A DNA stretch of 33,051 nt from a virus (taxonomy: Duplodnaviria > Caudoviricetes): positions 1 through 33,051 of the IMG/VR virus record IMGVR_UViG_3300016265_001126; one strand, written 5' to 3'. The notes below the pieces were generated by a model. The model searched no databases. It was not told the origin of the DNA and saw only the letters and a program-made list of their open reading frames with translations. This document shows, in pieces, positions 145 to 30,998 of the stretch; position 1 is the stretch's first letter, and each line of letters opens with the position of its first letter. The translations under genes were made by a program, and so were the position numbers.

Positions 145-387
145 CTATTTAGAAAGTTTTGCCATAGCTTTAGCAAATCCTTTTTTAAGTTCCGGAGTTG
201 GCGAGAAGTGAGTTGGTTTACCGAAACGTGCGCGGACTTCGCATCGCGCTTTAGAAACTGTAATCGCCCAGATTCCTGCACCGCTTTCGCCGATTCCAAA
301 TTTAATTGCAGGAGTATTAAAATACCAGTGGATTGCCGAAAGTGCTTTTTCTGTTTTAAGCTTTTGGATTACTTGCGCGAGTTTCAT
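145..387 (-). CDS. Hypothetical early protein (80 aa, MKLAQVIQK...)
   Basis: Start moved from TTG 489 to ATG 387, which follows the phage's AACAGAAAAACAGAAA leader; 440-490 looks like a promoter. Confidence 0.65.
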   Translation of the reverse strand: MKLAQVIQKLKTEKALSAIHWYFNTPAIKFGIGESGAGIWAITVSKARCEVRARFGKPTHFSPTPELKKGFAKAMAKLSK

Positions 388-444
388 TTTCTGTTTTTCT
401 GTTTTGATGTCGTCTCCGGTCCCGTCGTGGTCCCGTTTGACGTT

Positions 445-489
445 CTTTGTTTTAAACTTTTCCGCAGAAATGTCCACAACTATTTTCAA
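445..489 (-). promoter_or_regulatory. Putative early promoter
   Basis: TGGACA-N16-TAAAAC; 14 bp (476-489) identical to 13896-13909 in the other early promoter. Confidence 0.5.
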
Positions 490-671
490 TTATTTTCACT
501 TTTCTTTCAAATCAAGCATTGGTGCGGGTTTCCGGCCAATCGCTTTTTTCTTTTTCGCGGAATTTTTTCTTTTTTCTCATCGTACAATGTACGGTAACGG
601 TACAAAAACAGAGTTTTATCCGGTCTTAGAGTTAGTCGAATCGTTGTTTTACTTACTCGGTTATCGTAGGG

Positions 672-976: not shown

Positions 977-1032
977 TCACGTCGTCAGCGGCAATCACGC
1001 CAAGGATAAACAGAAAAACAGAATCAAAAAGC

Positions 1033-1152
1033 ATGAAAACGAAACGCATCAACGGACAGAAATTCGCACTCATCAACTATTCCAACAACGGATGGATTTA
1101 TCGCTTGACATACTTTCCTGTTGAGAATCTCCGGACACTTCGTGAAATTTGA
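1033..1152 (+). CDS. Small hypothetical protein (39 aa)
   Basis: ATG after the AACAGAAAAACAGAATCAAAAAGC leader. Confidence 0.5.
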   Translation: MKTKRINGQKFALINYSNNGWIYRLTYFPVENLRTLREI

Positions 1153-6673: not shown

Positions 6674-6853
6674 GTCCTGCAACTTGTGCGCTGCCTCGCC
6701 AATTTCCCACTTCACGCTTGCGGTCTGCGCGTCGTAGTTGTCGCGGGCGTCTCGGAGGCTGTCGTAATGCTCCTGCGCTTTCTGCACGGCGATTCTCGCG
6801 GCTCGCAGTCGGTTTGGCTTTGACTCTGGTATCTCGGTGAATAATTCGTTCAT
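6632..6853 (-). CDS. Coiled-coil hypothetical protein
   Basis: Coupled ORF with A/C-rich leader. Confidence 0.75.
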   Translation of the reverse strand: MNELFTEIPESKPNRLRAARIAVQKAQEHYDSLRDARDNYDAQTASVKWEIGEAAHKLQDAEEELKAAELEAL

Positions 6854-7422
6854 TGTTTTGTTTCTGTTTTTGTTGTGTTGGTGTTACTGTTTAACTGTCG
6901 CTGTTTCTGAAATTCCTCTTTCATGTAACCTCTGGCTTTCGAGTATTCCGTGAACGGATAGCCTTTTGATCCCATCCATTCTCGCCAGCCTTGCGGGTCG
7001 ACTGTCGGCTCATGCTTCGCTTTCGGCAACTTCGCTTTTGCGTTGTCCACTTCCCCGAGGTAGTTGTTCAAAAAAGTCAAGAGGCTCGTGCGTTTGAATT
7101 GATACCCGCTGGCGTAGAGCTTTTCCACAAGCGCAAGGTCGGCTAGGTCTATCTCTCCGCAGTTTCGGAACGCTCTGATTTCACGCTCGCTCCATTCAGT
7201 CGTCAGCTTGCGCCCAAATAGCGTGGCAATTCGCTTCGCCGCTTCCGTTGTCGGAACGCGGGTTGATTGCTGGCGTTCCTTCGGGCGTGACTGATGCTCG
7301 CCGCAAAAGTGGCCTTTTAGCACCTTTGGCCAAGTATGGTCATACACTGGCGGGTAACGCTTGCAATATGCGTTAAACTCGTTCTCTTCGTAATGAATGC
7401 AGGTTTCACAGGTGCGGGTCAT
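6850..7422 (-). CDS. Hypothetical protein: Cys/His N-terminal module plus helical domain, possibly replication-related
   Basis: CETC..YCKRYPP..FCGEH followed by a helical domain; lies upstream of dnaB. Confidence 0.55.
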   Translation of the reverse strand: MTRTCETCIHYEENEFNAYCKRYPPVYDHTWPKVLKGHFCGEHQSRPKERQQSTRVPTTEAAKRIATLFGRKLTTEWSEREIRAFRNCGEIDLADLALVEKLYASGYQFKRTSLLTFLNNYLGEVDNAKAKLPKAKHEPTVDPQGWREWMGSKGYPFTEYSKARGYMKEEFQKQRQLNSNTNTTKTETKQ

Positions 7423-8397: not shown

Positions 8398-9828
8398 TTA
8401 TTTTATCCACGCTGGGAGCGTCGGTTTGATTGTTTTGATTTGGCGTTCAAGTTTTATTGCGTTTCCCATGTGCTTCACAAGCTCCTCAAACATTTTGTCA
8501 GCCTGTTGAGCCTTTCGCATCATGTTGTCGCGGACTCGCTGCTCTCCCTCGCTAGCGATAATGTCCACGGTAACGGGTTTCTTTTGCCCGAAACGCCAGC
8601 AACGGCGGGTTAATTGGTAGTATTGCTCGTAAGAGTGCGAAGCAAAAGTCACAACGTGATTGCAAAATTGCCAGTTTAACCCCCACGCTCCGATTTTTGG
8701 CTTCACAATGAGAACCCGCTTTTCCTGCGCTTGAAACGCCGCGTAAGCCTCTTCTTTCTCGTCGTCATCCATCGCGCCTTTCACTTGCACGCTGTCTGGA
8801 ATCATCTTTTCCAAAAGGTCGCCTTCGTTATTCATGTGGCACCATACAACGGCAGGCTTTGAATGATTCACGAGATCCGCCGCCATACGGCAACGCTCGT
8901 TTATAGTGCGCCTGCGCTCGTCCCGTTCTTCCGCTAGTCCGAAGGCTGGCATTGTGAAAAGCATTCCTTCCGGTGGGGTTGTCGGCTTCACTACGTGCTC
9001 GCGTTCGATAAGGTCTGGGAGAACGTATCCGGCATCTGAGAAGCCAAGGTCAGAAGGTTTTCGGCAAGCTCGCGCCCAACTGCAAACCCAACGCCAGAAA
9101 TGATCATGCGCGTGGCCTTTTAGTCTCCAGCCGTTAATCGCCTGAGAAACACGAAACGAGATTTTCCCGAAGTGGTTCGCCTGCTTTTCAAGGTTGTCGA
9201 TTTTCTTCTCGTATTGGTCCGTTGTCTTTTGGTCCATCTGCTTGAAGAAACGGGAAAGCATTTCGGAATTGTTCAAGCTCCCTAAAGCCTCTGATGACGT
9301 GCCAAGCTCCGTGAAGTCATTAGGCGCGGCTGTAGCTGTCCACAGTGAGCGGTAAGGCAGTTTAGACATAAACCGCGTAACGGCCTTTTGCGTTGCTCCT
9401 GTCGCGTGCTTAATGATACTGCTTTCATCGCACGCAACTCCGGCAAAATCTTTCGGGTCAAACAAGTGAAGCTTCTCGTAGTTTGTCACCGTGATTTTTC
9501 CTGCCGGTTTCCCGTCGCGTGAACGTGCCGCGTGAAGCCCAAACTTCAAAGCCTCTGCAACCGTCTGCGCTCCGACCGCCAGCGGAGTAAGAATCAAAAC
9601 GTTCCCGTTTGTTTTCTCAACTACGTTCTGGCACCATACAAGTTGCATGGCTGTTTTACCTAGTCCGCAGTCCGCGAAGATTGCCGCTCGCCCTTTGCTG
9701 ATTGCCCACTCCAATAAAGCCCGCTGAAAAGGGAAAAGGAAATCCGGCAGAAATGACGGGTTGAATCCAAACTCTCCGCCGAGTTGAGATTTTTGGTGTA
9801 AGAACTGTTCGTATGTTTCTGTATTCAT
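8398..9828 (-). CDS. SNF2-like superfamily 2 helicase
   Basis: ADCGLGKT, DESS, TATAAPN, C-terminal QLTRRCWRFGQ; start at MNTET after AACAGAAAAAC. Confidence 0.9.
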   Translation of the reverse strand: MNTETYEQFLHQKSQLGGEFGFNPSFLPDFLFPFQRALLEWAISKGRAAIFADCGLGKTAMQLVWCQNVVEKTNGNVLILTPLAVGAQTVAEALKFGLHAARSRDGKPAGKITVTNYEKLHLFDPKDFAGVACDESSIIKHATGATQKAVTRFMSKLPYRSLWTATAAPNDFTELGTSSEALGSLNNSEMLSRFFKQMDQKTTDQYEKKIDNLEKQANHFGKISFRVSQAINGWRLKGHAHDHFWRWVCSWARACRKPSDLGFSDAGYVLPDLIEREHVVKPTTPPEGMLFTMPAFGLAEERDERRRTINERCRMAADLVNHSKPAVVWCHMNNEGDLLEKMIPDSVQVKGAMDDDEKEEAYAAFQAQEKRVLIVKPKIGAWGLNWQFCNHVVTFASHSYEQYYQLTRRCWRFGQKKPVTVDIIASEGEQRVRDNMMRKAQQADKMFEELVKHMGNAIKLERQIKTIKPTLPAWIK

Positions 9829-9956
9829 GTTTTTCTGTTTTAGAGTATCACCGCCGCATTCCACAGGTCTGCGGATCGTCGCAAGTCTCTTTCAAACCCT
9901 AGCGAAAGTTATTTCACATTGTTTGCCATGCGCGACTGGCGTTTTGCCACGGTAAA

Positions 9957-11810: not shown

Positions 11811-12025
11811 GCTGTCCTCCATACTCGCAATTCTGTTCTAGAAATTGCACGAATAGTTACTTTGATTCCGATCCTCTTGGCCGGAATATAAATATCGCAA
11901 TGTCTTGCTGTTATTGCGATAGAGTCTCCAATCTGCATTTTTCTGAGTGTTTCTGTAATCCCTGTCTTATTGCGTATTGTTGGGATTTCGATTCCCTTTT
12001 CGATCTGTATGTTTTCTGAGTTCAT
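11807..12025 (-). CDS. Small basic putative DNA-binding protein
   Basis: IEKGIEIP...MQIGDSI...LRVWR, a common phage pattern. Confidence 0.75.
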   Translation of the reverse strand: MNSENIQIEKGIEIPTIRNKTGITETLRKMQIGDSIAITARHCDIYIPAKRIGIKVTIRAISRTELRVWRTA

Positions 12026-12045
12026 TTGGTTTTCTGTTAAACTTT

Positions 12046-12219: not shown

Positions 12220-13020
12220 TTACATCAAATCGTGGTCCGCAAGTTCCGGCTCCGGTTCTCTAGGTGATTCGGTTGCCTCAATCGCTTTCTGTTCTCCAAA
12301 AATTGAGCTTGCAATTTGCTTTTCCGTGAACTTCGGAGCAAATACCTGCGTCAGTGAGTATTCCTCTTTCGCCTCGGTATCAAGTGCCGCCGACTGTTCC
12401 GGCGACAACGGCCAGCGTTTCGACATGCGACGGAGAACGGTCTTTTTCCCCATCTCCGCGTAATCCGTTACCCAAGGTCCAGAACCGCTCGCTTTGCTGC
12501 GTTTGCGGATCGCGTCAACTTCTGCCCGCGTCATAACCTCAACGTCCGTGTTTCCGTCGCGAATGCAGGTTGCTGCGAATGCGACAAGCTCGCCACGGTC
12601 TCCGAGGAAATTCGGCTGCCACTTGAAGGTGACGCTTGCGCCGTCCATGCCGTATTCAAAAACGTCATTTTTATGGACTGCGATTGCCCGAATGTTTTGC
12701 ACTCCGTTGCGTTCGGCAATTTGAACAAGCCCCTTGTAGTCGAAGATGACCTGCACGTTGTTCCCGTAAGGAATCAAATGCGCGCTCCGACCGTCTGGCA
12801 ATAGTCCGGCCTGAGCGCACAACATAAGAGCGTTTAAGAGACTCGCTGGCGTGCATTCCGCTAGCTTCGGGACTCGGGCAATCGTTCCAACCATTACGCG
12901 AGTCATTTGCTCTGCGGTGAGATATTTTGGCAGAACCTCCGCGATTTTACCGCGCATTTCGTCTGACGTAATAAGGCTGCGGATATCCTGCTTCTGTGCT
13001 TTTTGTAGTTCGTTGCTCAT
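12220..13020 (-). CDS. recT: RecT/Redbeta single-strand annealing protein
   Basis: CTPASLLNAL..AQAGL..AHLIPYG..YKGL..GPWVTDYAEMGKKTVLRRMSKRWP. Confidence 0.95.
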   Translation of the reverse strand: MSNELQKAQKQDIRSLITSDEMRGKIAEVLPKYLTAEQMTRVMVGTIARVPKLAECTPASLLNALMLCAQAGLLPDGRSAHLIPYGNNVQVIFDYKGLVQIAERNGVQNIRAIAVHKNDVFEYGMDGASVTFKWQPNFLGDRGELVAFAATCIRDGNTDVEVMTRAEVDAIRKRSKASGSGPWVTDYAEMGKKTVLRRMSKRWPLSPEQSAALDTEAKEEYSLTQVFAPKFTEKQIASSIFGEQKAIEATESPREPEPELADHDLM

Positions 13021-13169
13021 TTCGTCTCCTTTCTGTTTTCGAGAATGTAGGCAATATGCGCCGATAGAGAGCGCATCCAGTTCTTCGCCTCGTGCCGCAG
13101 TTGTTTTTTGAGTGTTGGCTTGAGATGAACCGCTGTCATCTCTCGCTTTTCTTTTTTTGGTGTTGTCAT
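13017..13169 (-). CDS. Arc-like ribbon-helix-helix regulator (50 aa)
   Basis: Hand-translated MTTPKKEKREMTAVHLKPTLKKQLRHEAKNWMRSLSAHIAYILENRKETK; beta-helix-RS-helix pattern; stop overlaps the recT ATG. Confidence 0.8.
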   Translation of the reverse strand: MTTPKKEKREMTAVHLKPTLKKQLRHEAKNWMRSLSAHIAYILENRKETK

Positions 13170-13646: not shown

Positions 13647-13811
13647 TTATCCGATGAAGTTTACTGAGAGGACTTCATGTCCGGCCTGCTTTGCGCGTTT
13701 AGCGGCTTGCGAGCGCGTGTCAGCGTCAACGCTCACATAGCCGTCTTTCGTTTCAATTTCGTATGAATGCTTCGCGGTGCGGTCTGCAATTCGGGCGTGT
13801 TCTTTTTTCAT
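13647..13811 (-). CDS. First early protein, hypothetical (54 aa)
   Basis: ATG after the AACAGAAAAATAGAACAGAAC leader. Confidence 0.65.
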   Translation of the reverse strand: MKKEHARIADRTAKHSYEIETKDGYVSVDADTRSQAAKRAKQAGHEVLSVNFIG

Positions 13812-13865
13812 GTTTTCGATGTTCTGTTCTATTTTTCTGTTCGCCAGCTTTGTTGCTGACGGTTG

Positions 13866-13920
13866 AGATAAAAGCAGGCCCGCAAAAAATACGCAACAAC
13901 TATTTTCAAATTTTTTCAAA
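13866..13920 (-). promoter_or_regulatory. Putative early promoter for the recombination/replication arm
   Basis: A-rich tract, TTGCGT-N17-TTTTAT; shares 14 bp with 476-489. Confidence 0.55.
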
Positions 13921-14658: not shown

Positions 14659-15074
14659 ACAAAAGCGAGTAAAGCCCGTGTCATCCTCTCGGTTTCTCCG
14701 GTCGCGTCAGAGTATCGCGTCTGCGCTAGTTGAGCGTCCGCTAATGCCTCGCGAATGTGCCCGGAGTGGAATGGTTTTCTAAGGACTGAATCGACGGCAT
14801 ATTTCGCGTTGCCAATATCTGAGGAATGTCCGGTCATTAGAACGAATGCAGCATCGCCCGCGAGCCTTCGCAGCATTGGCATCATCTCAAAAGTCTTTTC
14901 AGCCGTGGAATCCGGCAATTTCAAATCCAGAAACACAACGTCATATTCATGCTCCTGCAACGCCTTTATTGCTGCGCTCATCGAGTGAACGCATTTTTTT
15001 GCGTAGCCGATTAATACCGTGGAAATGGAAGCGGTTGCGCCAACGTCATCGTCGATAATGAGTGCAGACTTCAT
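14655..15074 (-). CDS. Single-domain response regulator (CheY-like receiver)
   Basis: LIIDDD, VVFLDLKLPD, LMTG, LRKPF. Confidence 0.92.
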   Translation of the reverse strand: MKSALIIDDDVGATASISTVLIGYAKKCVHSMSAAIKALQEHEYDVVFLDLKLPDSTAEKTFEMMPMLRRLAGDAAFVLMTGHSSDIGNAKYAVDSVLRKPFHSGHIREALADAQLAQTRYSDATGETERMTRALLAFV

Positions 15075-18587: not shown

Positions 18588-19271
18588 TTACTCCATAGCA
18601 GGGACAACAATCCATTGCAGGCTTGTCGTCACCTCATAAACATGACCTTCCGCAATATCGCCGGGACAACGAATGTTTAAATCTGTTCTTACCCATCCTT
18701 GAAAAAGCGGAGTCAGTGCCGGATAAAAGCCGTTAAAAGCCGTTTCAATAGCTGCGTTTTCCACGGATTGTGTGCCGAGCGGATTGACTACCTCTTCTCC
18801 AGATTGTGCCAAGCTAGGGCGTTTCCCGATTAGACAGAAAACATATGTCAGTGTCGGTTTCGGTTCGTTGATTATGGAAACGTAATTTGTTCCCGGCTTG
18901 ATCGTTGCCTTTTGCTGGTAAGTCGTCGAGCGAATGCAAGTCGGCTCTTTCGGCTGTGTGCCTAGAAGCCCGAGAAAGTTAGCCGTGATATGCGCCGTGC
19001 TTCCATCGTCATACGTAATGTCTGCCGAGTCCACGCACATATACTTAAAAACCTCGCGTGGAGTTCCGTGGGCGGTGTTGATTAGTCCGGCGAGTTGTGC
19101 AATGTCCCTGTCACTGCGTCCCGGCTTGAATACCTTTTCGAGATACGTGCGGGCGTTAGAGCTTGCGACCTTATAGACGCGCTGCCCCTCGTCAAACCCG
19201 CCGCCTTTTGTCCGTGTGAACGACGGTCCTGCTTGCGGTAAGATTGTTAGTGTGCCGTGTGCAATGTTCAT
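18588..19271 (-). CDS. Putative distal tail/hub protein
   Basis: Immediately after the tape measure; beta-rich. Confidence 0.55.
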   Translation of the reverse strand: MNIAHGTLTILPQAGPSFTRTKGGGFDEGQRVYKVASSNARTYLEKVFKPGRSDRDIAQLAGLINTAHGTPREVFKYMCVDSADITYDDGSTAHITANFLGLLGTQPKEPTCIRSTTYQQKATIKPGTNYVSIINEPKPTLTYVFCLIGKRPSLAQSGEEVVNPLGTQSVENAAIETAFNGFYPALTPLFQGWVRTDLNIRCPGDIAEGHVYEVTTSLQWIVVPAME

Positions 19272-19275
19272 ATCT

Positions 19276-20715
19276 TTACGCTACGGTCAAACGCTGGTTG
19301 AGCTTAACAAGTTCCTGCTCAACCTTGTTTAGAACTTTGTTGCCTTCATTAACTGCATTCTCCACGGGGTCTTTCCCCGCTGCCGGAACTAGCTTCATTT
19401 CAGCCGGACGCGCCTTTTCTCCGCGTGCTGCGGCATCTGCGTCACGAATCTTTTGCCGCGCGTCTAGGATGCGTTCAGCCCGCGCCCGTGCGCGTTGCTC
19501 GCGACGTTCTGCGCGTTGTGCCGCCGCTGCGCTTGTTGAGCCTCCCATGATGCGCTGAATTTGTTCTTCGCGCACGTCTTGGAGTTTTGATTGCGCTTCC
19601 GCTAAGTCCGCTTGCGCCTTTTCCATTCCTTTGCCTCCCCTGCGGAAACGCTGTTGAGCTTCCCTCACTCGCTCGCGTGCAAGTGCCATCCGCTGGTCTA
19701 GTGTTAGTTGTTTCTCTACTTTTTCGCGTTGTGATTTTTCAGCCGCCTTTCGTCTTTCCTCGTCAGCGTCAATCTCACGCGCCTGCTTTTCGCCTTCGCG
19801 AATAACCGCTTGCGCCTTTTCTTCTTCCAGCTTCCGCGCTTTATCGCCGCGCCTTTTGTTGATTCTGTCCTCGTCGGCTTCTATGCCTTCAAGCAATTCA
19901 GTAACAGCCTTTGCCACCCTCTCCTTTTCCTTAATCTCCTTGTCTGCATCGCTGCGCTTTTTAGCAGTGTCTATCAACGCGTTTTCTGCTGTTCTATCAA
20001 GACGCAATGCTTTGATTGAGTTAATCTCAACCGTCAGTTTTCGCTGACGTTCTAACTCGTCAGCGATATCTTTCTCTCCGCGCAGTCGTGCGTCAATAAT
20101 TGCATTATCCTCTTCGTTCAACATCAGCATTTGCTGGCGTGCTTCGATAGACTGCCAATAAAGGTCTCCTTGTGCGCGAAGGTTTGCTTCAAGCTCTTTC
20201 TGGTCTGACTTGGAAAAGAAACCATCCTGCAAATCGGCGGCTTTCTGCTTTAACTCGTCCATCGCTTTCGATGTCGATTTTAACGCGCGAGCGATATCAA
20301 TCGTCGTCCCTGTTGCCGTTGCTTTCCCAAGTGACTCTGAAACCTCGTCAACTTTAATGCGTAGCTTTTCTGCTTCTTCCCCGCCGCCAGAAAACGAGTT
20401 GTAAAGCAACAATCCAAGTCCTAGAACACCGCCAGCGATTGCCCCGCCGGGACCAAACACAGAAAGCAACTGCGTGCCTTGCTGCATCATTATCGTGCTT
20501 GCCTTTGTGCCTTGCTGGATTTGAACCGCAACGTCTTGAATCTGCAATGATGCGCCACCTAGCCCGCGAATGCCCGATCCGTATTTACCTCCTGACATTC
20601 CGCCAATCGGCTTCTCTGCCTCTTTCTTAAATCTCTTAACGGCTTGCTCTGCCGTCTGAGTTGCTTTCTCTACGCCAGTTGCGTCTCCTCTAAGTGTGTA
20701 AGTTAATCCCGGCAT
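19276..20715 (-). CDS. Tape measure protein (short)
   Basis: LQIQDVAVQIQQG..QQGTQL lambda-type TMP motif, hydrophobic segment, long coiled coil. Confidence 0.85.
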   Translation of the reverse strand: MPGLTYTLRGDATGVEKATQTAEQAVKRFKKEAEKPIGGMSGGKYGSGIRGLGGASLQIQDVAVQIQQGTKASTIMMQQGTQLLSVFGPGGAIAGGVLGLGLLLYNSFSGGGEEAEKLRIKVDEVSESLGKATATGTTIDIARALKSTSKAMDELKQKAADLQDGFFSKSDQKELEANLRAQGDLYWQSIEARQQMLMLNEEDNAIIDARLRGEKDIADELERQRKLTVEINSIKALRLDRTAENALIDTAKKRSDADKEIKEKERVAKAVTELLEGIEADEDRINKRRGDKARKLEEEKAQAVIREGEKQAREIDADEERRKAAEKSQREKVEKQLTLDQRMALARERVREAQQRFRRGGKGMEKAQADLAEAQSKLQDVREEQIQRIMGGSTSAAAAQRAERREQRARARAERILDARQKIRDADAAARGEKARPAEMKLVPAAGKDPVENAVNEGNKVLNKVEQELVKLNQRLTVA

Positions 20716-20718
20716 GTC

Positions 20719-21561
20719 TTATTTTTTGCGCCGTTCGCGCTCTAGTATCTTCTTAGTTGCGGTGTCTATTTCTTTTCGGAAACTACGGTCAAACGCTTCC
20801 ATTGCGCCCGTCTCGTTCAATTTCTTATCAATCCACGGAACACGGCTGGAAAGGACAGCCTCCCCGATTGCGCCAAGCATCTTAAAAGCTCCGTGTGCAG
20901 GTGCGTTGTGTTTTGTGATCCACTTGGCGCGAAGTCCGTTTTTCCCGCCTGCCATGCGTCCGGCTGTTATCCATGCGGACTTTGTGAATCCGACTTGCTC
21001 GCGTTTGTGCCTTACGTATTCGCGCAGTTTTTGCGAGTCTGCTACAATCTTTTGACGTGCATTTTTTCGAACGCGCCCGCCGTTGCTCCCGCCTTTGTAT
21101 CTATTGCTTTTGTGCCACTTCCCGCCATCCCACGGAATAACGTCAACGCTCGCAAACTCAGCTTGCGTGCGTATTATCTTTTGCGCTCTATCAAGTCGCC
21201 CTTCGCTCACGAACCTTGTGAAAAGCGATGAAATAGAAACGCCGCCTTTTTCTTTTGGCGTGCGCTTTCCTTTCAAAAAACTTTTCAGTTTTTCCGGTCC
21301 TAGATACACGCGGCCAATGTCACGCGAAACAGCCGATTGCCCGAGATTGCGAGCGGCTAGGCTTTCGCCGTCAGGATTGCCTTCCGCGTTCTTACCAAAG
21401 TTTGCAACCGGCATCGTCCAGCTTGCCAAGTAACGCGCCATAGTCGGCGCACGGTCTTTCACAAGCTGATTCACGTCTTTCTTGGTGAGTTCTGCTAATG
21501 TCCGCAGACTCTTTTGCATATCAGCGGCATAAACGTCGCCTCTTACTTGCAAGTCACTCAT
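20719..21561 (-). CDS. Putative tail completion/neck protein
   Basis: Basic protein in the tail module; function is positional inference. Confidence 0.5.
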   Translation of the reverse strand: MSDLQVRGDVYAADMQKSLRTLAELTKKDVNQLVKDRAPTMARYLASWTMPVANFGKNAEGNPDGESLAARNLGQSAVSRDIGRVYLGPEKLKSFLKGKRTPKEKGGVSISSLFTRFVSEGRLDRAQKIIRTQAEFASVDVIPWDGGKWHKSNRYKGGSNGGRVRKNARQKIVADSQKLREYVRHKREQVGFTKSAWITAGRMAGGKNGLRAKWITKHNAPAHGAFKMLGAIGEAVLSSRVPWIDKKLNETGAMEAFDRSFRKEIDTATKKILERERRKK

Positions 21562-22313
21562 GCCGGAACCTCCGTTAGCTCTCCCGCTTCGATGCGCTTA
21601 ATCAACTCGTCCGTCTCGCGCTGGATCTCCGCGAGCATTGCGTCATCCACGATTACCGCTGATTTCTTTTGCTGCCTAGCAATCGCAGTTCCGACGAGAT
21701 TCGTGATTCGATTTTCCGCTTCGATTTCTTCCACAGTCTTTTCAACTGGCTCGTCAGTTTCCGCGATATGCGTAACGTCATCGTCGAGTTCCCGCAGGCT
21801 CCAATACAGCCATAGAACTTGTGAAACCGGCCAGCGGTAAAGCAGTTCGTCAAACGATACTCCGCCTTTTGTCATGCGGAGTAATTGGCTGATTACAATG
21901 TGCGGATATGGCGCGTTTAGTTCCTTTGGCGTGCCGCTGGATTTCACGTCACGAAGTCGAGGTCCGGATAAATAGCAGGCCTGCACGTATCTTCCAAACC
22001 GCTCGCTTTCCTTGTCCAAATCGAACGCTTCGCACTTCACGCGGAAGGATTCAAACTCTTCCTCAGTCTCCGGAATCCCTAGGTCTAAACACGGCTTTTC
22101 TTCGCTGCAAATCTTTGTTGCGATTTCGAGCAAAGCGAAGTCCGCAAGGTCGTCGAGGAAAACAAAGTCATCGCCAAGTGCTTCTTTCAAAAGCTCCGCG
22201 TGAAACAATGATAGAGGACGTAACACGCGCCCCATGCACGAAAACTCGCCCGCATCCGCACGGCTTTGTGCGGTGTGCGCTGTCGCATAGCGGCTAAATT
22301 TTGCAAATGTCAT
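21558..22313 (-). CDS. Putative tail assembly chaperone
   Basis: Follows the tail tube gene; acidic and helical. Confidence 0.55.
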   Translation of the reverse strand: MTFAKFSRYATAHTAQSRADAGEFSCMGRVLRPLSLFHAELLKEALGDDFVFLDDLADFALLEIATKICSEEKPCLDLGIPETEEEFESFRVKCEAFDLDKESERFGRYVQACYLSGPRLRDVKSSGTPKELNAPYPHIVISQLLRMTKGGVSFDELLYRWPVSQVLWLYWSLRELDDDVTHIAETDEPVEKTVEEIEAENRITNLVGTAIARQQKKSAVIVDDAMLAEIQRETDELIKRIEAGELTEVPA

Positions 22314-22318
22314 TGTCT

Positions 22319-22403
22319 AAAAAAGAAGCCCGACCCGGTGAACAGAAAACCGAATCGGGCTATGAACGCCGTGAGACATGAACAACTCACGGGAAACAGA
22401 AAG
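22319..22403 (-). ncRNA. Double hairpin / terminator with loops antisense to early start regions
   Basis: Stems 22327-38/22350-61 and 22369-75/22386-92, U-tract on the minus strand. Confidence 0.65.
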
Positions 22404-22406
22404 CTT

Positions 22407-22835
22407 TTAGCTAGGGTTTTGTGCCGTCACCGTCAAGTTGGCGTTGCGCCGGAGCGTGAGAGCAAAAACCGCCGCATCGTCGTTTGTGTAAGTGTGCGTG
22501 CAATCTTCAATCTGATAGTCGCCATTGTAGAGCGAAGGAGTAACGCTGGCAAGTGTCACCTTTGAGCCGGGCGTCAGGTCTGCCGTATTGCTAAACGCGG
22601 AAGGCACTTTGATTGAAAAAGAAAGCGTCTCTTCGTAATCAAAACGCCGCTCGCCAACAAGGTTCCCGGATTCGTTGATGTCCTCGTTTTTGCTACGGTA
22701 TTTCGGCGTATATGTGAACGGACCGACGATCCGGTAAGTCGTGCCTAGTGCCGCGCCTTGCGAATCAAGTGTGATATTCGCGCCGGTCAGCGGAAGGGCT
22801 TTAAGGTAGCCAAAAGAATGGGTGACGTCTGCCAT
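22407..22835 (-). CDS. Major tail tube protein (putative)
   Basis: 142 aa, beta-rich, after the terminator-like gene, followed by a transcription terminator. Confidence 0.65.
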   Translation of the reverse strand: MADVTHSFGYLKALPLTGANITLDSQGAALGTTYRIVGPFTYTPKYRSKNEDINESGNLVGERRFDYEETLSFSIKVPSAFSNTADLTPGSKVTLASVTPSLYNGDYQIEDCTHTYTNDDAAVFALTLRRNANLTVTAQNPS

Positions 22836-22848
22836 AATACTTTCGTGC

Positions 22849-23568
22849 TTATGTCAAATCGTTGCAATTCAAAGCATCCACCTCAAACTCGTAGTCCCGA
22901 ATACGCAAGTTTTCCTCTACGTTTGGTGATGCCGCAATAAACCGCATTCCGAAAATTGTCAGTCCGGTTGCGGGCTTGTAACTTCCTCCAGTCTGCCCGA
23001 TTTCTGCAATCACGTCTGTGTATTCTGCCGCTTGTTTTAAGACGTTCTCAATATACACCGGACGATTAGCTTGCAGCGTTACTGACTCTGTAAGCGTGAT
23101 ATTGTAATGATACCAACTGCCCGCAGAGACGCTGGAAATTGTCCGGTTTGTTCCGTTAAGTTGTATAATATCGTTCGCCGCTAAAAATGTTGGAGCCGTT
23201 CCGGGGACTTCCCAGTCGAGCACGAACGATGCGCTGTTTGATGTGTGTGCGTTTACTTTTCCAATCCTGCGCGGGCGGCTAATGATGTTCTCAAACTCTG
23301 CCGCATATTGGTCGATTGTTTCGCCAGTCATTTCCTCAGCAAGTCGAAAGCGGACAACGCAACGCTGCGGGCCTCGTATTAGTCCTCGCCTGTCTGGGTC
23401 TGAAAAAGGCGAAATGCTGCCCGTGAAAATTGCGAGATACGGCACGTTCACAACTTCAGTTTGAACGGAAGTCACAATGTCCACGCCGTCCAATAAAGGA
23501 GCGCGAACACCTTCCAAATAATCGCGGAATGCAATCTCTAGTTTTGTTCCGAGCGTTTGGTAGGCCAT
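22849..23568 (-). CDS. Tail terminator-like protein with an apparent insertion
   Basis: KLEIAFRDYL..VPYLAIFTG N terminus and C-terminal strand; position. Confidence 0.55.
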   Translation of the reverse strand: MAYQTLGTKLEIAFRDYLEGVRAPLLDGVDIVTSVQTEVVNVPYLAIFTGSISPFSDPDRRGLIRGPQRCVVRFRLAEEMTGETIDQYAAEFENIISRPRRIGKVNAHTSNSASFVLDWEVPGTAPTFLAANDIIQLNGTNRTISSVSAGSWYHYNITLTESVTLQANRPVYIENVLKQAAEYTDVIAEIGQTGGSYKPATGLTIFGMRFIAASPNVEENLRIRDYEFEVDALNCNDLT

Positions 23569-23891
23569 TATACGTTCCGTGAATCGAGGTTGATTTGATG
23601 CGTGTCGCCGTCGGTTTGCGTTTGCCCGATGACACGGAAAACCTTGCCGTCACTCACTCGCGTGATTAGTGCTCCGTGAGCCGGTGCCGTTGCAAGGTCG
23701 GTGATTGCTACTTCAATCGTTGCGGTAAACGATTCAACCTTTCCATAGACTTCGACTTGCTGCGTGTAGCCTAGTGAGTTGAAATCACACGGCACGTTTC
23801 CAGCAACGCCCGGAAAGGTGAAATTGACCGTTCCGAAAACGTCGTTGCTTGTCTCCCATCCTGCGGCCATGAATGTGTCGAATCGCGCCAT
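23568..23891 (-). CDS. Head-tail joining (gpFII-like) protein
   Basis: 107 aa, beta-rich, after the capsid genes. Confidence 0.65.
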   Translation of the reverse strand: MARFDTFMAAGWETSNDVFGTVNFTFPGVAGNVPCDFNSLGYTQQVEVYGKVESFTATIEVAITDLATAPAHGALITRVSDGKVFRVIGQTQTDGDTHQINLDSRNV

Positions 23892-23907
23892 TTCTTTCTT
23901 GTTTTAG

Positions 23908-23945
23908 TCAAAACAAAGGCCGCACTCAGTTTCCCAAGTGCGGCC
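23908..23945 (-). terminator. Intrinsic terminator after the capsid genes
   Basis: GGCCGCACT/AGTGCGGCC stem followed by UUUGUUUU. Confidence 0.85.
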
Positions 23946-23965
23946 CTGATGATTCCCCTTTTGTT

Positions 23966-24172
23966 TTATTCCTTTTCTGACTTAGGCTTTTCGGCCTCAG
24001 TCGAGCCGCTTGCGGCACATACCGGGGTCAGAGAAAAGCACGCAATGCGCTTTCCAGCTTTTACCTTTCCGCGTGCGTCCATCACGGCTTTCCGGTGGAC
24101 AACTCCGGGCTGGTCTGGTCCCAGAACCAGTTTCGAGCCTTTTCCGTCGAGTTCAAGCGTGATGAATTTCAT
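23966..24172 (-). CDS. Small hypothetical protein after the capsid gene
   Basis: 68-aa ORF between capsid and terminator. Confidence 0.65.
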   Translation of the reverse strand: MKFITLELDGKGSKLVLGPDQPGVVHRKAVMDARGKVKAGKRIACFSLTPVCAASGSTEAEKPKSEKE

Positions 24173-24181
24173 CGATTAAGT

Positions 24182-25018
24182 TTAGGCGGATTTGATGATT
24201 TTCAGACGGCTGGAATCTCCGCTTGCGGCACCGAACATGACGTTGAACGACGCCCACGGTGCGCGGCTTGCACGGCTAATCCAGCGCGAGAAACGGACGG
24301 AAAGGCCGAGCGAGTCGATTGTGATTACGTCGTTGCTCTGCATGTCGTTCGCAACTCCGTCGTCCATCGTCGGGAGTCCGCTTGCAACTGCGATTGCCTG
24401 CGGGTCGCAAAGGAATCCCGTGACGTTTGCTTGTGCTCCAGTCCAACGGTTATTTTCGAGGATGCGGTCGAATCCGTATGCGCCGCTTTCCCCAAGAGCA
24501 AACGAGTTGCGGTCCGTCGGGAGAATGCGTGCGACATAGCTGCCGTCGAGGACGAGGTGCTTCATGTCCAAATCCTTCCCGGCGGCGTAGAGCGTTACGA
24601 GGTCGTCAGTGCCGAAATCGGCTGCCGCTACAGTGAGCGCGGCTGCGCCCGTGACTGGTGCCAAGGCTGTATCCGCGATTTTGTAAGCAAGCTGCCGGAG
24701 GTTGATGTCGATGAGCTTCTGAAGCCGGAAGCCCTGCTGAAGTTGTGCGCTCGTCAGGTGAAACGAGACGGACAATTCGGAAGGCGTAACTGCGATATTC
24801 GACAACGTAGTGTCGCCGGATTCATAGTTGCTCGGGTCAGTTTGTGCGGTCGCTCCGGCAGTTGCTTTGGCGACTTGAACAACTGATTTCGGCGCGATTG
24901 TGTCGGCGGTGAAATCGGTTGAGTATGCGGACAAGAATGCAAGTTTGCTTCCGAGGACTGTGAGAACCCGGTCGCGCACTACATCTACTACGAGGTCGGC
25001 TGAGAGTGTGTTAGCCAT
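24182..25018 (-). CDS. Major capsid protein (P22-coat/HK97-like)
   Basis: MANTL start, position after protease and scaffold, C-terminal FNVMFGA..RL pattern. Confidence 0.85.
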   Translation of the reverse strand: MANTLSADLVVDVVRDRVLTVLGSKLAFLSAYSTDFTADTIAPKSVVQVAKATAGATAQTDPSNYESGDTTLSNIAVTPSELSVSFHLTSAQLQQGFRLQKLIDINLRQLAYKIADTALAPVTGAAALTVAAADFGTDDLVTLYAAGKDLDMKHLVLDGSYVARILPTDRNSFALGESGAYGFDRILENNRWTGAQANVTGFLCDPQAIAVASGLPTMDDGVANDMQSNDVITIDSLGLSVRFSRWISRASRAPWASFNVMFGAASGDSSRLKIIKSA

Positions 25019-25063
25019 GATGTTTTATTGTGTGTGTTGTTGTTGTTGGTTCTGCGTCCCTGT

Positions 25064-25501
25064 TTAGGAGAGCAAAGTTTTCTTGTTCTTTTGGAAAAAT
25101 GCGAATCGCTCCTCTCCGGTGAGCGTAGCGTAATGCTCTTTAATCTGCGCCGAGGTCGTGAATTCCTTTGGCCCGTTTGATGCGGTGCCGCCTGCCGGTG
25201 CCTTAGCTCCGTAGCGTGCGCCTTGTTCACGCGCCTTTGCCGCTTCAATCTTGGCTTCGTCGCGCTCTTTTGTCAGTGCCTCGTTTTCAGCGGTGAGCGT
25301 TTCGAGCTTTGCGGAAAGCTCCGTGTTTTCGGCGTTCGCGGTTTCGAGATTTGCAAGCGTCTCTTTTGCTGCATTCTGCGCTGTTTCGAGTTCGGTTTTC
25401 TGCGCGGCAATAATAGCTTTCGCCGCCTCAAGTTCAGCGGTCACAGTCGAAAGCGATGCGTTTGCGGTTTCGAGTTCCTGCGTGATTTCTTCAATGCTCA
25501 T
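25064..25501 (-). CDS. Capsid scaffolding protein
   Basis: A/E-rich coiled coil, short C-terminal helix pair. Confidence 0.75.
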   Translation of the reverse strand: MSIEEITQELETANASLSTVTAELEAAKAIIAAQKTELETAQNAAKETLANLETANAENTELSAKLETLTAENEALTKERDEAKIEAAKAREQGARYGAKAPAGGTASNGPKEFTTSAQIKEHYATLTGEERFAFFQKNKKTLLS

Positions 25502-26349
25502 TTGTTTTTGCGCGTTGTCAAATAGTCCGCCAGTTGAGTTGCTAGCTTGCGAGCCGTTGTTATGTTTCCGGTGAAATCCACAAGGCCGTTTTCAAGTGCC
25601 TGTTCTCCGGTGAAAACCTGCCCGCGCATTGATTCCATGCCGACTTTCTTGCGGTTCGCTTTTACGAATCCTGTGAAGTTCGCGTTGATGCTTTCGATGT
25701 GTGACTGAAACCAATTTGTTTCCGCTGCGGTAGGTGCTCGCATAGGCGTTCCTGCCGCTTTCAAGTCGCTAGCTGCGGGCGTGAAAATGTGCGGAGTTAT
25801 TCCCATTGCCGCGAGTGCGTTCCCGAAGTCGAGAAACTCAATACGCGTGCCGATGCTGCCAACCATTCCGCTTGCTTGCGCGACGATAGCCGATGCACCT
25901 GCCGCCAAGTAATACGCTGCGCTTGCTCCAATTTCTCCGATGTATGCAATGACTGGCTTCGTCTGTCTGCTGTCGCGAACCGATTGCGCTGCCTCTGGTG
26001 CTCCAATCGCACTTCCGCCGGGGCTATTAATGTCTAGCACAACTGCGCGGACGTTCGGGTCGCTCATCGCCTTGTCGAGTTCGCTTGTGACTTGTTCGTA
26101 ATCGGTCATGCCGAGCTTCCGGTCACTTCCAGTCGTATTCTGCGCTAGAACATCGTTGATGTGAATCGTAGCAATCCCATCAGACACGGAATAATCTCGC
26201 CGCTGGTTCACAAAGTCACCAATGCTCAGATTCTCCGGCATCGCCTCGCAACGGGCGCGAAGGTTTGCGAAACGCTGAATAAATGCTGGGATTGCCGTTG
26301 GCAACATCGCCAGCGGCTGCGTTAGTATGGTTTCAGGAATTGGAATCAT
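25498..26349 (-). CDS. S49 prohead protease (lambda gpC/SppA-like)
   Basis: LDINSPGG, ASAAYYLA, VGSIG, GQVFTGEQALENGLVD. Confidence 0.95.
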   Translation of the reverse strand: MIPIPETILTQPLAMLPTAIPAFIQRFANLRARCEAMPENLSIGDFVNQRRDYSVSDGIATIHINDVLAQNTTGSDRKLGMTDYEQVTSELDKAMSDPNVRAVVLDINSPGGSAIGAPEAAQSVRDSRQTKPVIAYIGEIGASAAYYLAAGASAIVAQASGMVGSIGTRIEFLDFGNALAAMGITPHIFTPAASDLKAAGTPMRAPTAAETNWFQSHIESINANFTGFVKANRKKVGMESMRGQVFTGEQALENGLVDFTGNITTARKLATQLADYLTTRKNK

Positions 26350-27934
26350 TTTGTGCGTTCTGGTTGTCTGACTCTATTAAATCTTCGGCTGTGTCCTCCG
26401 GTGAATCTTCAGCCTCAATCGGCTCTGCGGTCATCGCGCCTTTTTGCTGCGTTGTGCTTGTCGCACTTCCCGGAGGTAGAGGACGCCAGCGGTTCGCAAG
26501 CTGCTTCGCCTCTTCCGGCGTGTAACCTTGCAAAACAGCTTCATCTTCAAACTCGCGAAACTCGCGAATCCACTGGCGGATGTGCGTCAAGTAATCTTCG
26601 CCCTGTTCGTCGTAGATAAGGCGCATCGTCGCAAGTCCGTGATTGAGTTCTTCAATGCGTGCTTTTGAATCTCGCCCGTTGTCGAGCGTTACACGTCGCG
26701 GCCTGCGGTAGCTGATGCAGTCGCGCCAATTTACGGGAGGCTCCGCAAGCAATCCGCTTGCAACTCGCCATTCGATGAAACGAATGATAAACCGTTCAAA
26801 CCATCCATAAATCACTTTGTCCGCTAGTAGCGAGAAAGCCGCGTCAGCTTGTGCGAAAATGCCGCGAGCGTTTGCGCCGCCGAGCTTGTCGCGACTCCAG
26901 AAAAACTCAACTGGAATGCCGGTTCCTGCCGCTGCGTCACGTAGCAAAAGGTCGGTCACGTATTCGTTCACCAATGGCGAGGGCGTATTGCCCGTAATCA
27001 ACTCAACCTTTCCATCGTCACCCATGCGGGCAATCGCTGCGCCTGCGCCTTGGTAAAGGTTTTCCACGGCTTGCGTGTCCACTTGGTCAACTCCCTCAAC
27101 TGGTGCCGCAAGTGCCGCCATTGCTCCGCGTCCCTTTGCTGCCTTTGTTCCCTTGATGATAAGCGAAACAAGCCGCTGCGTTTTAGCGGTCTTGGTTTCC
27201 AGACGCTTTAACTCGTGAATGTCAACTAAATTATTGACTCCCGGCGCAAGCGGTGAAATTCCGCGGCTTTGGTTCGTTCCCTGCGCGTGAAAGATGTGAG
27301 AAACATCCCGTGCGTCGTAGGCTTGAAACTCTGTGCTTGCCAGCCTGACGTGGTAGTAACGTGCGCGGCCAAAGTCGCCGAGTTCGATTCCGTCGTGGAT
27401 GCCTTCCGTTGCTTTTCCGTTTTGCTGCGGCGGCGTGGCAACGTCGTTCGGCTCTATCGCGTAAAATGCCGGGCAATCGTCAACGCCAGAACGCGGAGAA
27501 GGGAAGTCGGGATTTTCAGAATGAAGAACGAAAGCCTCGCCAATGATTGCAAGCTGCTCCGCAATGTGCGCCTGCATTTCGTAAGCGTTGCGGCGTCCGG
27601 TAACGTCGCATTGCGTCGGGGTCATGCAGTAATTTTCAAGCGAAAGGTTCGCCGCCTTGTTCCACTCCGCATTTTCCGTGTTAAAACTCGCAAATATTCC
27701 ACGCCCTACCGTATGCCGTGCGATTCCACGGCCCCACTCCTGCACGATTCCAAAGTTTTGACGGCACCATTCAACCTTTTCGACAATCCGCTTGCGAGTG
27801 TATGCAGAAAGGTAAAGCCGCGAATCTTGCGGAATGAGAAATTGAACGTTTGCGCGGTCGATAGACGAATCAACTGTCTCACGGTAGCTCGTCGAACCTG
27901 CTCCTAGTTTTTTTGGCTGTTTTTTAGGCTTCAT
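26333..27934 (-). CDS. Portal protein, lambda family
   Basis: IHDGIELGDFGRARYYH, QSRGISPLAP; start at MKPKKQ via ATGA overlap. Confidence 0.92.
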   Translation of the reverse strand: MKPKKQPKKLGAGSTSYRETVDSSIDRANVQFLIPQDSRLYLSAYTRKRIVEKVEWCRQNFGIVQEWGRGIARHTVGRGIFASFNTENAEWNKAANLSLENYCMTPTQCDVTGRRNAYEMQAHIAEQLAIIGEAFVLHSENPDFPSPRSGVDDCPAFYAIEPNDVATPPQQNGKATEGIHDGIELGDFGRARYYHVRLASTEFQAYDARDVSHIFHAQGTNQSRGISPLAPGVNNLVDIHELKRLETKTAKTQRLVSLIIKGTKAAKGRGAMAALAAPVEGVDQVDTQAVENLYQGAGAAIARMGDDGKVELITGNTPSPLVNEYVTDLLLRDAAAGTGIPVEFFWSRDKLGGANARGIFAQADAAFSLLADKVIYGWFERFIIRFIEWRVASGLLAEPPVNWRDCISYRRPRRVTLDNGRDSKARIEELNHGLATMRLIYDEQGEDYLTHIRQWIREFREFEDEAVLQGYTPEEAKQLANRWRPLPPGSATSTTQQKGAMTAEPIEAEDSPEDTAEDLIESDNQNAQNDSNS

Positions 27935-28221
27935 GGTAGAACATTCGTGAAGCTCGCAACAGTGAACATCGGATTGCCGTCCGCTACGTCCATTGTGCGT
28001 AACGCATCGCGGCAACATTTCGCGACAGTCGCCGCGTCCATGCCTATTTGCATGGTGTAGCTTTTCCCATTGCGACTTCCGCTTGTCATCGAATCAATGA
28101 CGCCACCGCCTGCAACAATCTTAGCCTTTGCCGCCGTCAATAAGTCGGTGACAAATGACTCGTTCCCATCGTCAATCTCGTCGATGAGAAACTGTGTGAA
28201 ATCAGCGTTTGAAAGCGGCAT
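27931..28221 (-). CDS. gpW-like head completion protein
   Basis: Small gene directly before the portal; SGSRNGKSYT hairpin. Confidence 0.65.
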   Translation of the reverse strand: MPLSNADFTQFLIDEIDDGNESFVTDLLTAAKAKIVAGGGVIDSMTSGSRNGKSYTMQIGMDAATVAKCCRDALRTMDVADGNPMFTVASFTNVLP

Positions 28222-28245
28222 CTTTTTGACGCCGCCTTGTCAAAA

Positions 28246-28491
28246 CTAATCCGATTCAATTACCCTGACGCGATTGCGATAAAGGTTATCGGCAATGTAA
28301 GTCGCCAGCTTGGTGACGTATTCTTCCGTTAGTGAACCGTCAAAGCTGTGTACTAGCTCATGAATCAGCGTATCTAGCCTCGCCTTGCCCTTTAGCCTCT
28401 CGTCAATTTCAATCAAGCCGTCAGAATGGCAAAGCCCGTCTGCGCGTTCGCGGCCTAGTTTGCGTTCAACGATTTGCGGTTTTCGTGGCAT
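28246..28491 (-). CDS. Small HExxH metallopeptidase-like protein
   Basis: ADGLC..IEID..LDTLIHELVH..EEYV; start at MPRKPQ. Confidence 0.75.
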   Translation of the reverse strand: MPRKPQIVERKLGRERADGLCHSDGLIEIDERLKGKARLDTLIHELVHSFDGSLTEEYVTKLATYIADNLYRNRVRVIESD

Positions 28492-28596
28492 ATTATACGA
28501 ACAGGAGTTGCCCAAACATCGGTAGGCGGCTTTCGGCGAAACAGGCATGTGCAGAAAACGCCAGCAATCGCAGTGCTGTCTCTTGCGAGCCAAGCC

Positions 28597-28896
28597 TTAC
28601 TCACGTTCCACCTCCCCGATTTGTATGATTTGGATTTTGTGAGGATTCGCCATTTCGCTGTTTGCCCCATGGCAAGTGTAGCCTGCCCCAACCGCAAGCG
28701 CGTGCGCGATTAGCGGAATCCACTTTCGGGCTTCGTCTGCATCCGCGAGGACGACTTGGTGCGTTACAGACACATTCACCGATCCGTCATTGGTGCCGGT
28801 CAGCGGAGTCACGTCTAGATACGGAACAAGGTAGCCGTCCACGGATACTTTGTGGTGCGTGAACGGCCCGTGTATTTTTGTATTTTGGTAGTCCAT
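28597..28896 (-). CDS. Hypothetical accessory protein
   Basis: 99-aa ORF. Confidence 0.7.
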   Translation of the reverse strand: MDYQNTKIHGPFTHHKVSVDGYLVPYLDVTPLTGTNDGSVNVSVTHQVVLADADEARKWIPLIAHALAVGAGYTCHGANSEMANPHKIQIIQIGEVERE

Positions 28897-28901
28897 AAAA
28901 T

Positions 28902-29411
28902 TTAATGCTTTTCACCGGTAGTATGGGAACCAGTCACACCAGCGGACGTGCCGCCGCTGTGTTCATCGCTCTGCGACAGGGCGGCGTCTGCCAGTTGGCA
29001 GATTTTGCCAATGTCAGCGGGCGGCTTGGTGGCGTCCCATGTTACATTTGCTTCCACGAGGATTGAGCGCAGCGCAGTTCGCAATCTCAGGGTTTCATCG
29101 GCGGGCGTCACTGAGAACTGTTCGCAACCATCTGCGACGTATTTGTTGTCAATGGGCGGCGTTTGATTATCCCCCGGCATTGCGTCCTCGTAGAGCGCAC
29201 GTTGTTCTGGAGTCCATTGGTGATGGTGTTCTGTAAGCGCAATTGCCAGTGCGTCCAATGCCTTCCGCGCTATATCAAGCGATGATTGCAGTCCACGCAG
29301 TGCATCTTGATAGCACGCAATTATTTCTTCGTTGGTCGCAGAGCCAGTCACAGCAGGCGAACCCGCCGTTTTCGGTTCCGTTGGTTGGTTGTTTGTATCA
29401 GTTGGTTTCAT
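28902..29411 (-). CDS. Hypothetical cassette-borne protein
   Basis: 169 aa; both termini are encoded by the attC-like sites (AVTGSA / GVTGSH). Confidence 0.7.
   Translation of the reverse strand: MKPTDTNNQPTEPKTAGSPAVTGSATNEEIIACYQDALRGLQSSLDIARKALDALAIALTEHHHQWTPEQRALYEDAMPGDNQTPPIDNKYVADGCEQFSVTPADETLRLRTALRSILVEANVTWDATKPPADIGKICQLADAALSQSDEHSGGTSAGVTGSHTTGEKH
28924..28974 (+). repeat. attC-like site 1
   Basis: TGGGAAC-CAGTC-ACA(C)CAGC...GCTGTGT-TCATC-GCTCTGC. Confidence 0.65.
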
Positions 29412-29458
29412 ATTTTGATTTGTTCTCTCCGGCTGGTTCGCTGTGTTTGTCGTCCGTT
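29338..29458 (+). repeat. attC-like site 2
   Basis: GCAGAGC-CAGTC-ACA(G)CAG(G)CGAACC...GGTTCGCTGTGT-TTGTC-GTCCGTT. Confidence 0.65.
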
Positions 29459-29459
29459 T

Positions 29460-30997: not shown

Positions 30998-30998
30998 G

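Follow-up and report, generated by a model that had tools for sequence, protein, structure and literature searches.

Why should the short gap between two tail genes of a phage encode a pair of hairpins whose loops read as the complement of translation starts elsewhere in the same genome? The window analyzed here, the whole stretch of 33,051 nucleotides, comes from a lambda-like tailed phage and is a partial virus record, 51% complete; it encodes a GpA-type terminase, lambda-type portal, S49 protease, tape measure, M15 endolysin, RecT and DnaB. Family scans of 54 window and 59 relative proteins, all from partial genomes, found no integrase, repressor or antirepressor families. The stretch was found in metagenome runs from fresh water, rivers, estuaries and other aquatic sites and, with a small share, in one organism transcriptome.

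The element (minus strand, 22403-22319) occupies the 93-nt gap separating a 142-aa gene from a 251-aa gene, and folding resolves it into two hairpins and a U-tract directly 3' of what is likely a tail-tube gene (Table 1). Refolding and shuffling reproduced the sequence, fold and coordinates given in a preliminary description of this locus: the minus-strand fold has z = -2.96, with none of 200 shuffles equally stable, and both loops are predicted to be unpaired (p mostly 0.8-0.9), while the 5' segment and the linker are predicted to be partly paired, the more so with upstream context. The core of the hairpin 1 loop, UUCAUGU, is the complement of ACAUGAA spanning a start codon; the core of the hairpin 2 loop, UUUCUGUU, is the complement of AACAGAAA, a tag found in the leaders of many genes of this phage family. 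A G/C-rich stem of 12-13 bp and a U-run follow the stop codon in all six known versions of the element, as in an intrinsic terminator; hairpin 2 is absent from the terminator-scan list because the scan allows loops of up to 8 nt, which this loop exceeds. Rfam returned no match at the element up to E=5, and two weak matches elsewhere in the window.

Table 1. Positions in the window of the element's parts, the neighboring features and the predicted target sites.
Feature	Position	Strand	Remarks
5' single-stranded segment CUUUCUGUUUC	22393..22403	-	extra anti-AACAGAAA seed copy; kept in 4 of 6 versions
Hairpin 1	22369..22392	-	7-bp stem, loop UUGUUCAUGU (22385-22376); fold and core kept in all six versions though the stems change
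Linker CGUUCAU	22362..22368	-	not conserved; GUUCAU kept in 2 of 6 versions
Hairpin 2	22327..22361	-	12-13-bp G/C-rich stem with U-G pairs, loop UUUUCUGUUCA (22349-22339); doubles as terminator stem
U-tract UCUUUUUU of predicted intrinsic terminator	22319..22326	-	T-run invariant in 6 of 6 versions
Gene for likely tail tube protein, 142 aa	22407..22835	-	element is its 3' UTR
251-aa gene	21558..22313	-	starts 5 nt past the U-tract; in no PHROG or Pfam family; its 18 homologs are hypothetical or unnamed
TTTGAC	22853..22858	-	23 nt upstream of tube start; candidate late-promoter element
Predicted target at 13811	13797..13910	-	promoter-like block, 5' hairpin, two AACAGAA tags, ACAUGAAA start; first gene after the lysis cassette
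Predicted target at 387	373..490	-	promoter-like block, tandem AAACAGAAA tags, AUGAAA start
Predicted target at 1033	1008..1047	+	tandem AACAGAA tags before ATG; 39-aa ORF, start picked by hand
Predicted target at 9828	9814..9840	-	helicase-family gene, AAACAGAAAAAC-AUGAAU start; tag and AUGAAU kept in G003 and G004
Predicted target at 6853	6839..6869	-	AAACAGAAA tag, AUGAAC start
Predicted target at 12025	12011..12038	-	AACAGAAAA tag, AUGAAC start
Predicted target at 13020	13006..13038	-	AAACAGAAA tag merging into GGAG motif before RecT

The product of the 142-aa gene is likely a tail tube protein: it matches PHROG 52, a tail protein family, weakly (E=0.0014), its nearest named Atlas cluster is PF06199 (on 25% of members), and with an AlphaFold model of pLDDT 65 Foldseek returned nothing at E<=0.001, the top rows being tail, baseplate and neck chains that include the tail tubes 8gtb and 6yeg. 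Judged from its position only, the 251-aa gene would encode a tail assembly chaperone. The TTTGAC motif ahead of the tube gene hints at a short transcript of this gene's own. All four RNA runs examined contain contigs of relatives in the tube region, and one spans the element and extends 21 nt beyond the U-tract, although such contigs give no strand, end or level; run X15 is probably DNA. RNA contigs ending at 22413 were considered as a sign of processing and set aside, since contigs from the probable DNA run stop at the same place, where strains merge. An internal sigma-70-like promoter at 22552-22524 was likewise rejected; three such sites occur where 3.3 are expected, and it varies among strains at 22524, 22527 and 22530.

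The element is present in all 11 clade loci that span the junction (locus L013 stops at the tube stop codon), in six distinct versions from which the structure model was built; protein scans place the relatives' tube proteins at 99, 79 and 58% identity to that of the window. On the model-fitted alignment of these versions, which leans to structure and in which helix 1 aligns poorly (83.3%), 94.4% of cells are paired and 7 of 18 pairs change on both sides; neither the pairing nor the covariation score was attained in any of 500 shuffles, and slid controls reached at most 48.5%. For hairpin 2, 98.7% of cells are paired and 5 of 13 pairs change on both sides, and single-sequence folds recover both hairpins in every version. 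The loop cores UUCAUGU and UUUCUGUU are fixed in all six although tube protein identity drops to 58%. Both loops thus present a conserved unpaired seed inside a co-varying structure, as looked for in an sRNA. The preliminary description had proposed four complementary unpaired segments and had asked whether the loops are conserved along with the stems; the loops are indeed kept while the stems co-vary, but of the four segments only these two are conserved, the linker and the 5' segment being variable. At the 5' end, UUCUGUUU is kept in four of the six versions, and extra copies of the seed shift between the 5' segment and the linker, one version having a second UUCUGUUCA in the linker. A single version (L011:2635-2655, and L012) reads UUUCCCUCC, which is anti-Shine-Dalgarno-like, in place of the anti-tag seed in its 5' segment.

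At closer range, the core differs between locus L001 and the window at 1 of 75 sites, the tube gene at 37 of 142 third positions; in three of the four runs examined, over 22318-22442, strains with divergent flanks merge into one contig and show a single difference. No second copy of the element was found in 22 + 19 sources. Pattern scans of viral contigs returned 81 and 17 stretches, with the element in just three and three, all on contigs that the protein scans had already given. Bacterial and archaeal genomes, scanned by way of the chaperone alignment and DnaB, gave no finds, and for the tube clade P0005-P0007 (53-54% identity) the scanned collections contained no DNA. The conservation sample is six related versions only. 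On these sequences the element is real, structured and strongly conserved.

Which strand is the functional one? A U-G pair present in all six versions becomes an A-C mismatch on the plus strand, and the minus strand is lower in energy in all six; together these features point to the minus strand. The preliminary description had raised, as its alternative, a plus-strand RNA that would act as a decoy for a protein that binds the leaders, presenting it with AACAGAAA and AUGAAC; the ribosome might be decoyed in the same way, and a small antisense gene would be a further use of that strand. The plus strand does resemble a start region and folds nearly as well (z = -2.98; 3 of 200 shuffles equally stable). 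Set against this are the U-G pair, the energies and the U-tract, which lies on the minus strand, as well as the ORFs that open at the loop-1 ATG, which run to 8-39 aa and are not conserved, so that the antisense peptide was rejected. We hold a plus-strand function to be highly improbable.

To which sequences, then, would the minus-strand loops correspond across the family? Genes were called in 11 sources by a codon model blind to motifs, leaving out weak calls, calls without ATG and calls with fewer than 30 nt upstream; 262 genes were retained, with 206 distinct start regions in 71 non-virion and 25 virion-module families. Among the 71 non-virion families, the top leader words are AACAGA (19), AACAGAA (17) and AACAGAAA (13), followed by AACAGAAAA (12, tied), and the commonest start context from -2 to +6 is ACATGAAC (7). 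AACAGAA(A) thus ranks first among leaders and ACAUGAAC first among start contexts, and the top leader words are exactly complementary to loop 2, the top context to loop 1. AACAGA occurs in the leaders of 16 of 71 non-virion and none of 25 virion families (p=0.0097), and ATGAAC starts occur in 16 of 71 and 1 of 25 (p=0.038); taken alone, neither AACAGAAA (9/71 vs 0/25, p=0.11) nor ACATGAA (10/71 vs 1/25, p=0.28) separates the two classes. AACAGAA reaches 11.07 per kb in non-virion leaders, compared with 0.099 in coding interiors, and is absent from virion leaders, those of the capsid and tube genes among them. It sits mostly at -18 to -6, is commoner than AACAAAA, and has single-base variants in at most two families each, except at position 5. 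Most tagged leaders contain no Shine-Dalgarno motif. We also considered the tag as an extended Shine-Dalgarno partner of the 16S end, which we take to read UUUCU; that pairing could account for AGAAA and would leave the invariant AAC unexplained.

The match between loops and starts exceeds chance. When both loops were shuffled jointly, 0 of 5000 shuffles matched the start regions as well, in keeping with the claim that the complementarity is better than in composition-matched controls. When each loop was shuffled by itself, 11 of 12 tests gave p=0.003-0.03; in the remaining one the short loop 2 variant failed at the 6-nt threshold (p=0.43). With CAU held fixed, loop 1 of the window was not significant (p=0.10-0.27) and the other loop-1 type gave p=0.009-0.05. 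Among the 14,241 11-mers of the late module, 13 of the 25 best anti-start 11-mers fall in the element. A seed complementary to several mRNA start regions above chance, the second property looked for in an sRNA, is therefore present.

Predicted binding was compared for the window only, on starts that were hand-checked and not blind; the median was -7.85 kcal/mol for 28 early starts and -3.55 kcal/mol for 20 late starts (p=8e-5), and 2 of 120 loop-scrambled versions bound as well. Over half of this early-late contrast is composition, because scrambling the loops still leaves a preference for early starts of 2.1 out of 3.6 kcal/mol. In the window, one or the other mark, tag or start, is carried by half of the early starts (14 of 28), by 1 of the 20 late starts and by 2 of the 6 between terminase and portal; the other 14 early starts have neither. 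The seeds are short (7-9 bp), with net energies of -8 to -11 kcal/mol for seven tagged starts; in cofolds, pairing went through the 5' segment or the linker and not the loops, loop-loop pairing being beyond the cofold method. When starts were compared by loop type, loop 1 did not track its own genome: in phages with the anti-AUGAAA loop the second codon is AAC at 14 and AAA at 6 of 59 starts, and in those with the anti-AUGAAC loop at 14 and 9 of 75. The early genes of relative G004 are 85-95% like those of the window, yet it has the other loop type; such mosaic genomes would blur any own-genome tracking of loop 1 and favor a family-wide target.

These data also bear on whether the element acts in cis only, as a 3' end whose match to starts is incidental. 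Hairpin 2 would then be a terminator that sets the tube-to-chaperone ratio, hairpin 1 would stabilize the mRNA, and a U-rich-binding protein would hold the loops fixed; the location between the tube stop and the next start, the G/C-rich stem and U-tract of all six versions, the share of composition in the binding contrast and the lack of own-genome covariation in loop 1 are all consistent with this account. It does not explain why both loops correspond to top-ranked motifs, each at its own position, to a degree reached by no joint shuffle, nor the invariant CAU of loop 1, nor the seed copies that move between 5' segment and linker; furthermore, the post-capsid terminator of the same operon has no such loops, its loops being variable and mostly of GAAA type (5 sequences). 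We consider a purely cis role rather unlikely. A target in cis within the late transcript was rejected, there being no AACAGA on the minus strand over 18687-31517.

Turning to the individual sites, the six AACAGAAA leaders (387, 1033, 6853, 9828, 12025 and 13811) and nine ATGAAC sites (32, 1184, 1383, 3404, 6853, 11810, 12025, 13642 and 30997) of the preliminary description are all present; its list had missed the tagged leaders at 13020 and 31505 and an ATGAAC gene of the late module at 19271. The 14/15 match of 22341-22355 to 12024-12038 that it singled out is correct, but the start at 12025 does not stand as a specific target: the extension beyond the 9-nt core appears to be incidental, because stem 2 accounts for six of the letters and a tblastn search of 14 loci gave no homolog of the 12025 gene. 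The tandem tags sit behind promoter-like blocks at 13904 and 484, and the 13811 cassette is kept in G003 and the 387 cassette in G004, with different first genes that still start AUGAA. Tagged genes also occur in the late region. The multi-target antisense reading therefore keeps its basis in conserved loops and above-chance complementarity, whereas 'early' is only approximate as a name for its targets, because the tag marks non-virion genes generally, some of them between terminase and portal.

We reasoned that the terminator-bearing 3' end of the tube gene supplies a trans-acting antisense RNA, which would pair with the start regions of non-virion genes and lower their translation late in infection; this is the reading we favor, at somewhat better than an even chance. 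Hairpin 2 and the U-tract would end most tube transcripts, and the element would accumulate with an abundant late mRNA, either attached to it or cut free. Loop 1, being 5', would lie on the AUG and loop 2, being 3', on the upstream tag, which is the antiparallel order, and extra seed copies in the 5' segment or linker would add avidity. If the tag is a translation enhancer for a Shine-Dalgarno-poor host, masking it together with the AUG would block ribosome loading, and virion genes would escape because their leaders lack the tag. What the sequences show is the structure, covariation, loop invariance, above-chance complementarity and absence of the tag from virion leaders; each step beyond complementarity we infer. 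As computational evidence, the case that the element acts as an antisense RNA on a signature of start regions is unusually clean. A bolder version, possible but on balance doubtful, is an early-to-late translational switch made of RNA only, in which the loops of the tail-tube mRNA would clamp together the AUG and a non-Shine-Dalgarno enhancer tag of early mRNAs, so that tail production would silence the whole tagged class and also the first genes of superinfecting relatives.

Pairing with the tagged starts might instead protect or activate them, or affect their decay rather than ribosome loading; phage sRNAs can both activate and repress, as the available part of the report on PreS describes (bioRxiv 10.1101/2024.10.31.621285). 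Loop 1, however, covers the AUG itself, and the local structure at the seven tagged starts is weak to begin with (-0.5 to -8.5 kcal/mol), leaving little to unfold, which makes this outcome very unlikely.

The main target might also be another one, an account that does not exclude the antisense reading: the tag would be a general start signature of the host, or one shared by the phage family, and the RNA would shut off host translation or block a superinfecting relative. The loop variants do fit the family-wide core ACAUGAA and not each genome, and the tandem tag stands at first genes behind promoter-like blocks, where it is kept when the gene is swapped. The likely host bears on this as well. 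Among the 10 DnaB clusters examined (41-46% identity, residues 1-200), the organism-named members are Verrucomicrobiota, Terrimicrobiaceae and Chthoniobacteraceae, and a host in the Chthoniobacterales is therefore likely; a closer DnaB match (51%), on a 3.9-kb contig, is named Undibacterium. The class into which these named cellular relatives fall is listed as Shine-Dalgarno-poor in the class table of PMC10783764, the part of that paper used here, where Spartobacteria are given as 10, a value that we read as the percentage of genes with stable Shine-Dalgarno pairing.

Against a general start signature stand the capsid and tube leaders, which would be expected to be strong and lack the tag, and two phages outside the clade. 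In the distant relative G007 (36% complete) the junction gap is 18 nt, the structure model finds no match and AACAGAA is absent from 31,378 bases, with GGAGG leaders at the non-virion genes inspected; in an Akkermansia phage, 0 of 41 leaders are tagged. The element-negative control is one partial genome, G007; the joint absence of element and tag there, and of the tag in the Akkermansia phage, fits a link between the two, although different hosts may explain it. As the main target, host or competitor starts seem to us quite unlikely.

The known enterobacterial sRNAs derived from 3' UTRs, of the CpxQ and DapZ type, are chromosomal and Hfq-dependent. They resemble the element in having the seed in an mRNA 3' UTR and in sharing its terminator. 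Like the element, the C4 antisense RNA of P1 and P7 (RF01695) directs two short unpaired segments against a ribosome-binding region and its neighbor (PMC5320573, in the text available); unlike it, C4 has three stem-loops, is cut by RNase P, is located in the immI operon and guards lysogeny by blocking ant, according to the accessible parts of PMC5320573 and PMC8198154. Here two hairpins lie in a late 3' UTR and the predicted targets are many; the element matches no Rfam family, RF01695 included, lies between tail genes and belongs to no c4-icd-ant operon, and is thus no member of the C4 family. GcvB is likewise multi-target and masks an ACA-containing enhancer upstream of the start (from the portion of PMC3879156 at hand), and AACAGAA contains ACA. 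GcvB is a chromosomal enterobacterial sRNA for amino-acid genes, with its site upstream of the Shine-Dalgarno motif. The phage-borne element differs in directing a second loop against the AUG and in that most of its tagged leaders have no Shine-Dalgarno motif; in the absence of an Rfam match at the element, the likeness is one of target type only.

RsaE, as described in the accessible text of PMC2790875, uses a conserved unpaired motif to bind several mRNAs and block initiation without Hfq-dependent expression, much as proposed here. Its motif is C-rich (UCCC), whereas the loops of the element are U/G-rich, and neither core, UUCAUGU or UUUCUGUU, holds an unpaired UCCC. The phage RNAs OOP, aQ, sar, sas, STnc6030, PreS and VpdS control phage or host genes by pairing, and those covered in the available part of PMC12197685, a 2025 review, are cis-antisense to one gene or have mostly host targets, none being a late 3' end directed against shared early starts; the PreS preprint, in the text available, names no such late RNA either. 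A literature search, outside which most subscription papers lay, found no description of the element or of any phage RNA made late and directed at a start signature that early genes share. In PMC10690425, with its 10,006 candidate viral RNAs, neither the element nor its contigs were matched in six supplementary files; three others, left out, may contain it. The element resembles GcvB and RsaE in logic and C4 in its use of two segments, and is a member of none of the three families.

Early-gene shut-off in lytic phages is usually credited to transcription control or to repressor proteins. If the favored antisense reading is true, a structural-gene 3' end that silences tagged early mRNAs would be a simple timing device, and would expose the translation-start code of a Shine-Dalgarno-poor host group, the loops reading out which leader letters matter. 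An 85-nt element and 40-nt targets are testable in vitro and in reporters without phage culture.

Several further features of these genomes were observed. In 6 of 25 virion-module families, TTTGAC precedes the ATG by 20-26 nt; the motif is found on the minus strand of the window at 28244, 25522, 23912, 22858, 19291, 17563 and 30565, in one case right behind the post-capsid terminator, and ranks first among leader 6-mers in G007. It is a candidate late-promoter element that would yield very short leaders. An AT-rich promoter-like block, a 5' hairpin and tandem tags are common to 13810-13910 (-) and 387-490 (-) of the window and to L096:8296 and L102:1162, and the early operon has non-coding gaps of ~195 nt and ~240 nt (12025-12220 and 13170-13410, minus strand).

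A stand-alone response-regulator receiver domain (PF00072, E=3e-10) lies inside the lysis cassette at 14655-15074 (-) and is conserved in relatives. Helicase-family and DNA methylase genes are separate in the window (7419-9864, minus strand) and form a single ORF of ~735-760 aa in G003 (L096:13849-16056) and G006 (L107:8827-11121). The gene at the capsid position (24182-25018, minus strand; 278 aa) has no PHROG match; in its place G003 encodes an unrelated major head protein of 386 aa (L095:12603-13763), while the flanks stay homologous. A sub-threshold Rfam match to rnk_pseudo (34.6 bits vs 55) at the convergent gene junction 1864-1966 (+) is probably a terminator. Lastly, after the capsid gene of G007, three hairpins occur at L121:7463-7597, the first loop of which contains GGUUUGGA, an exact 8-nt complement of UCCAAACC at the terminator loop; this region is a candidate kissing-loop element.
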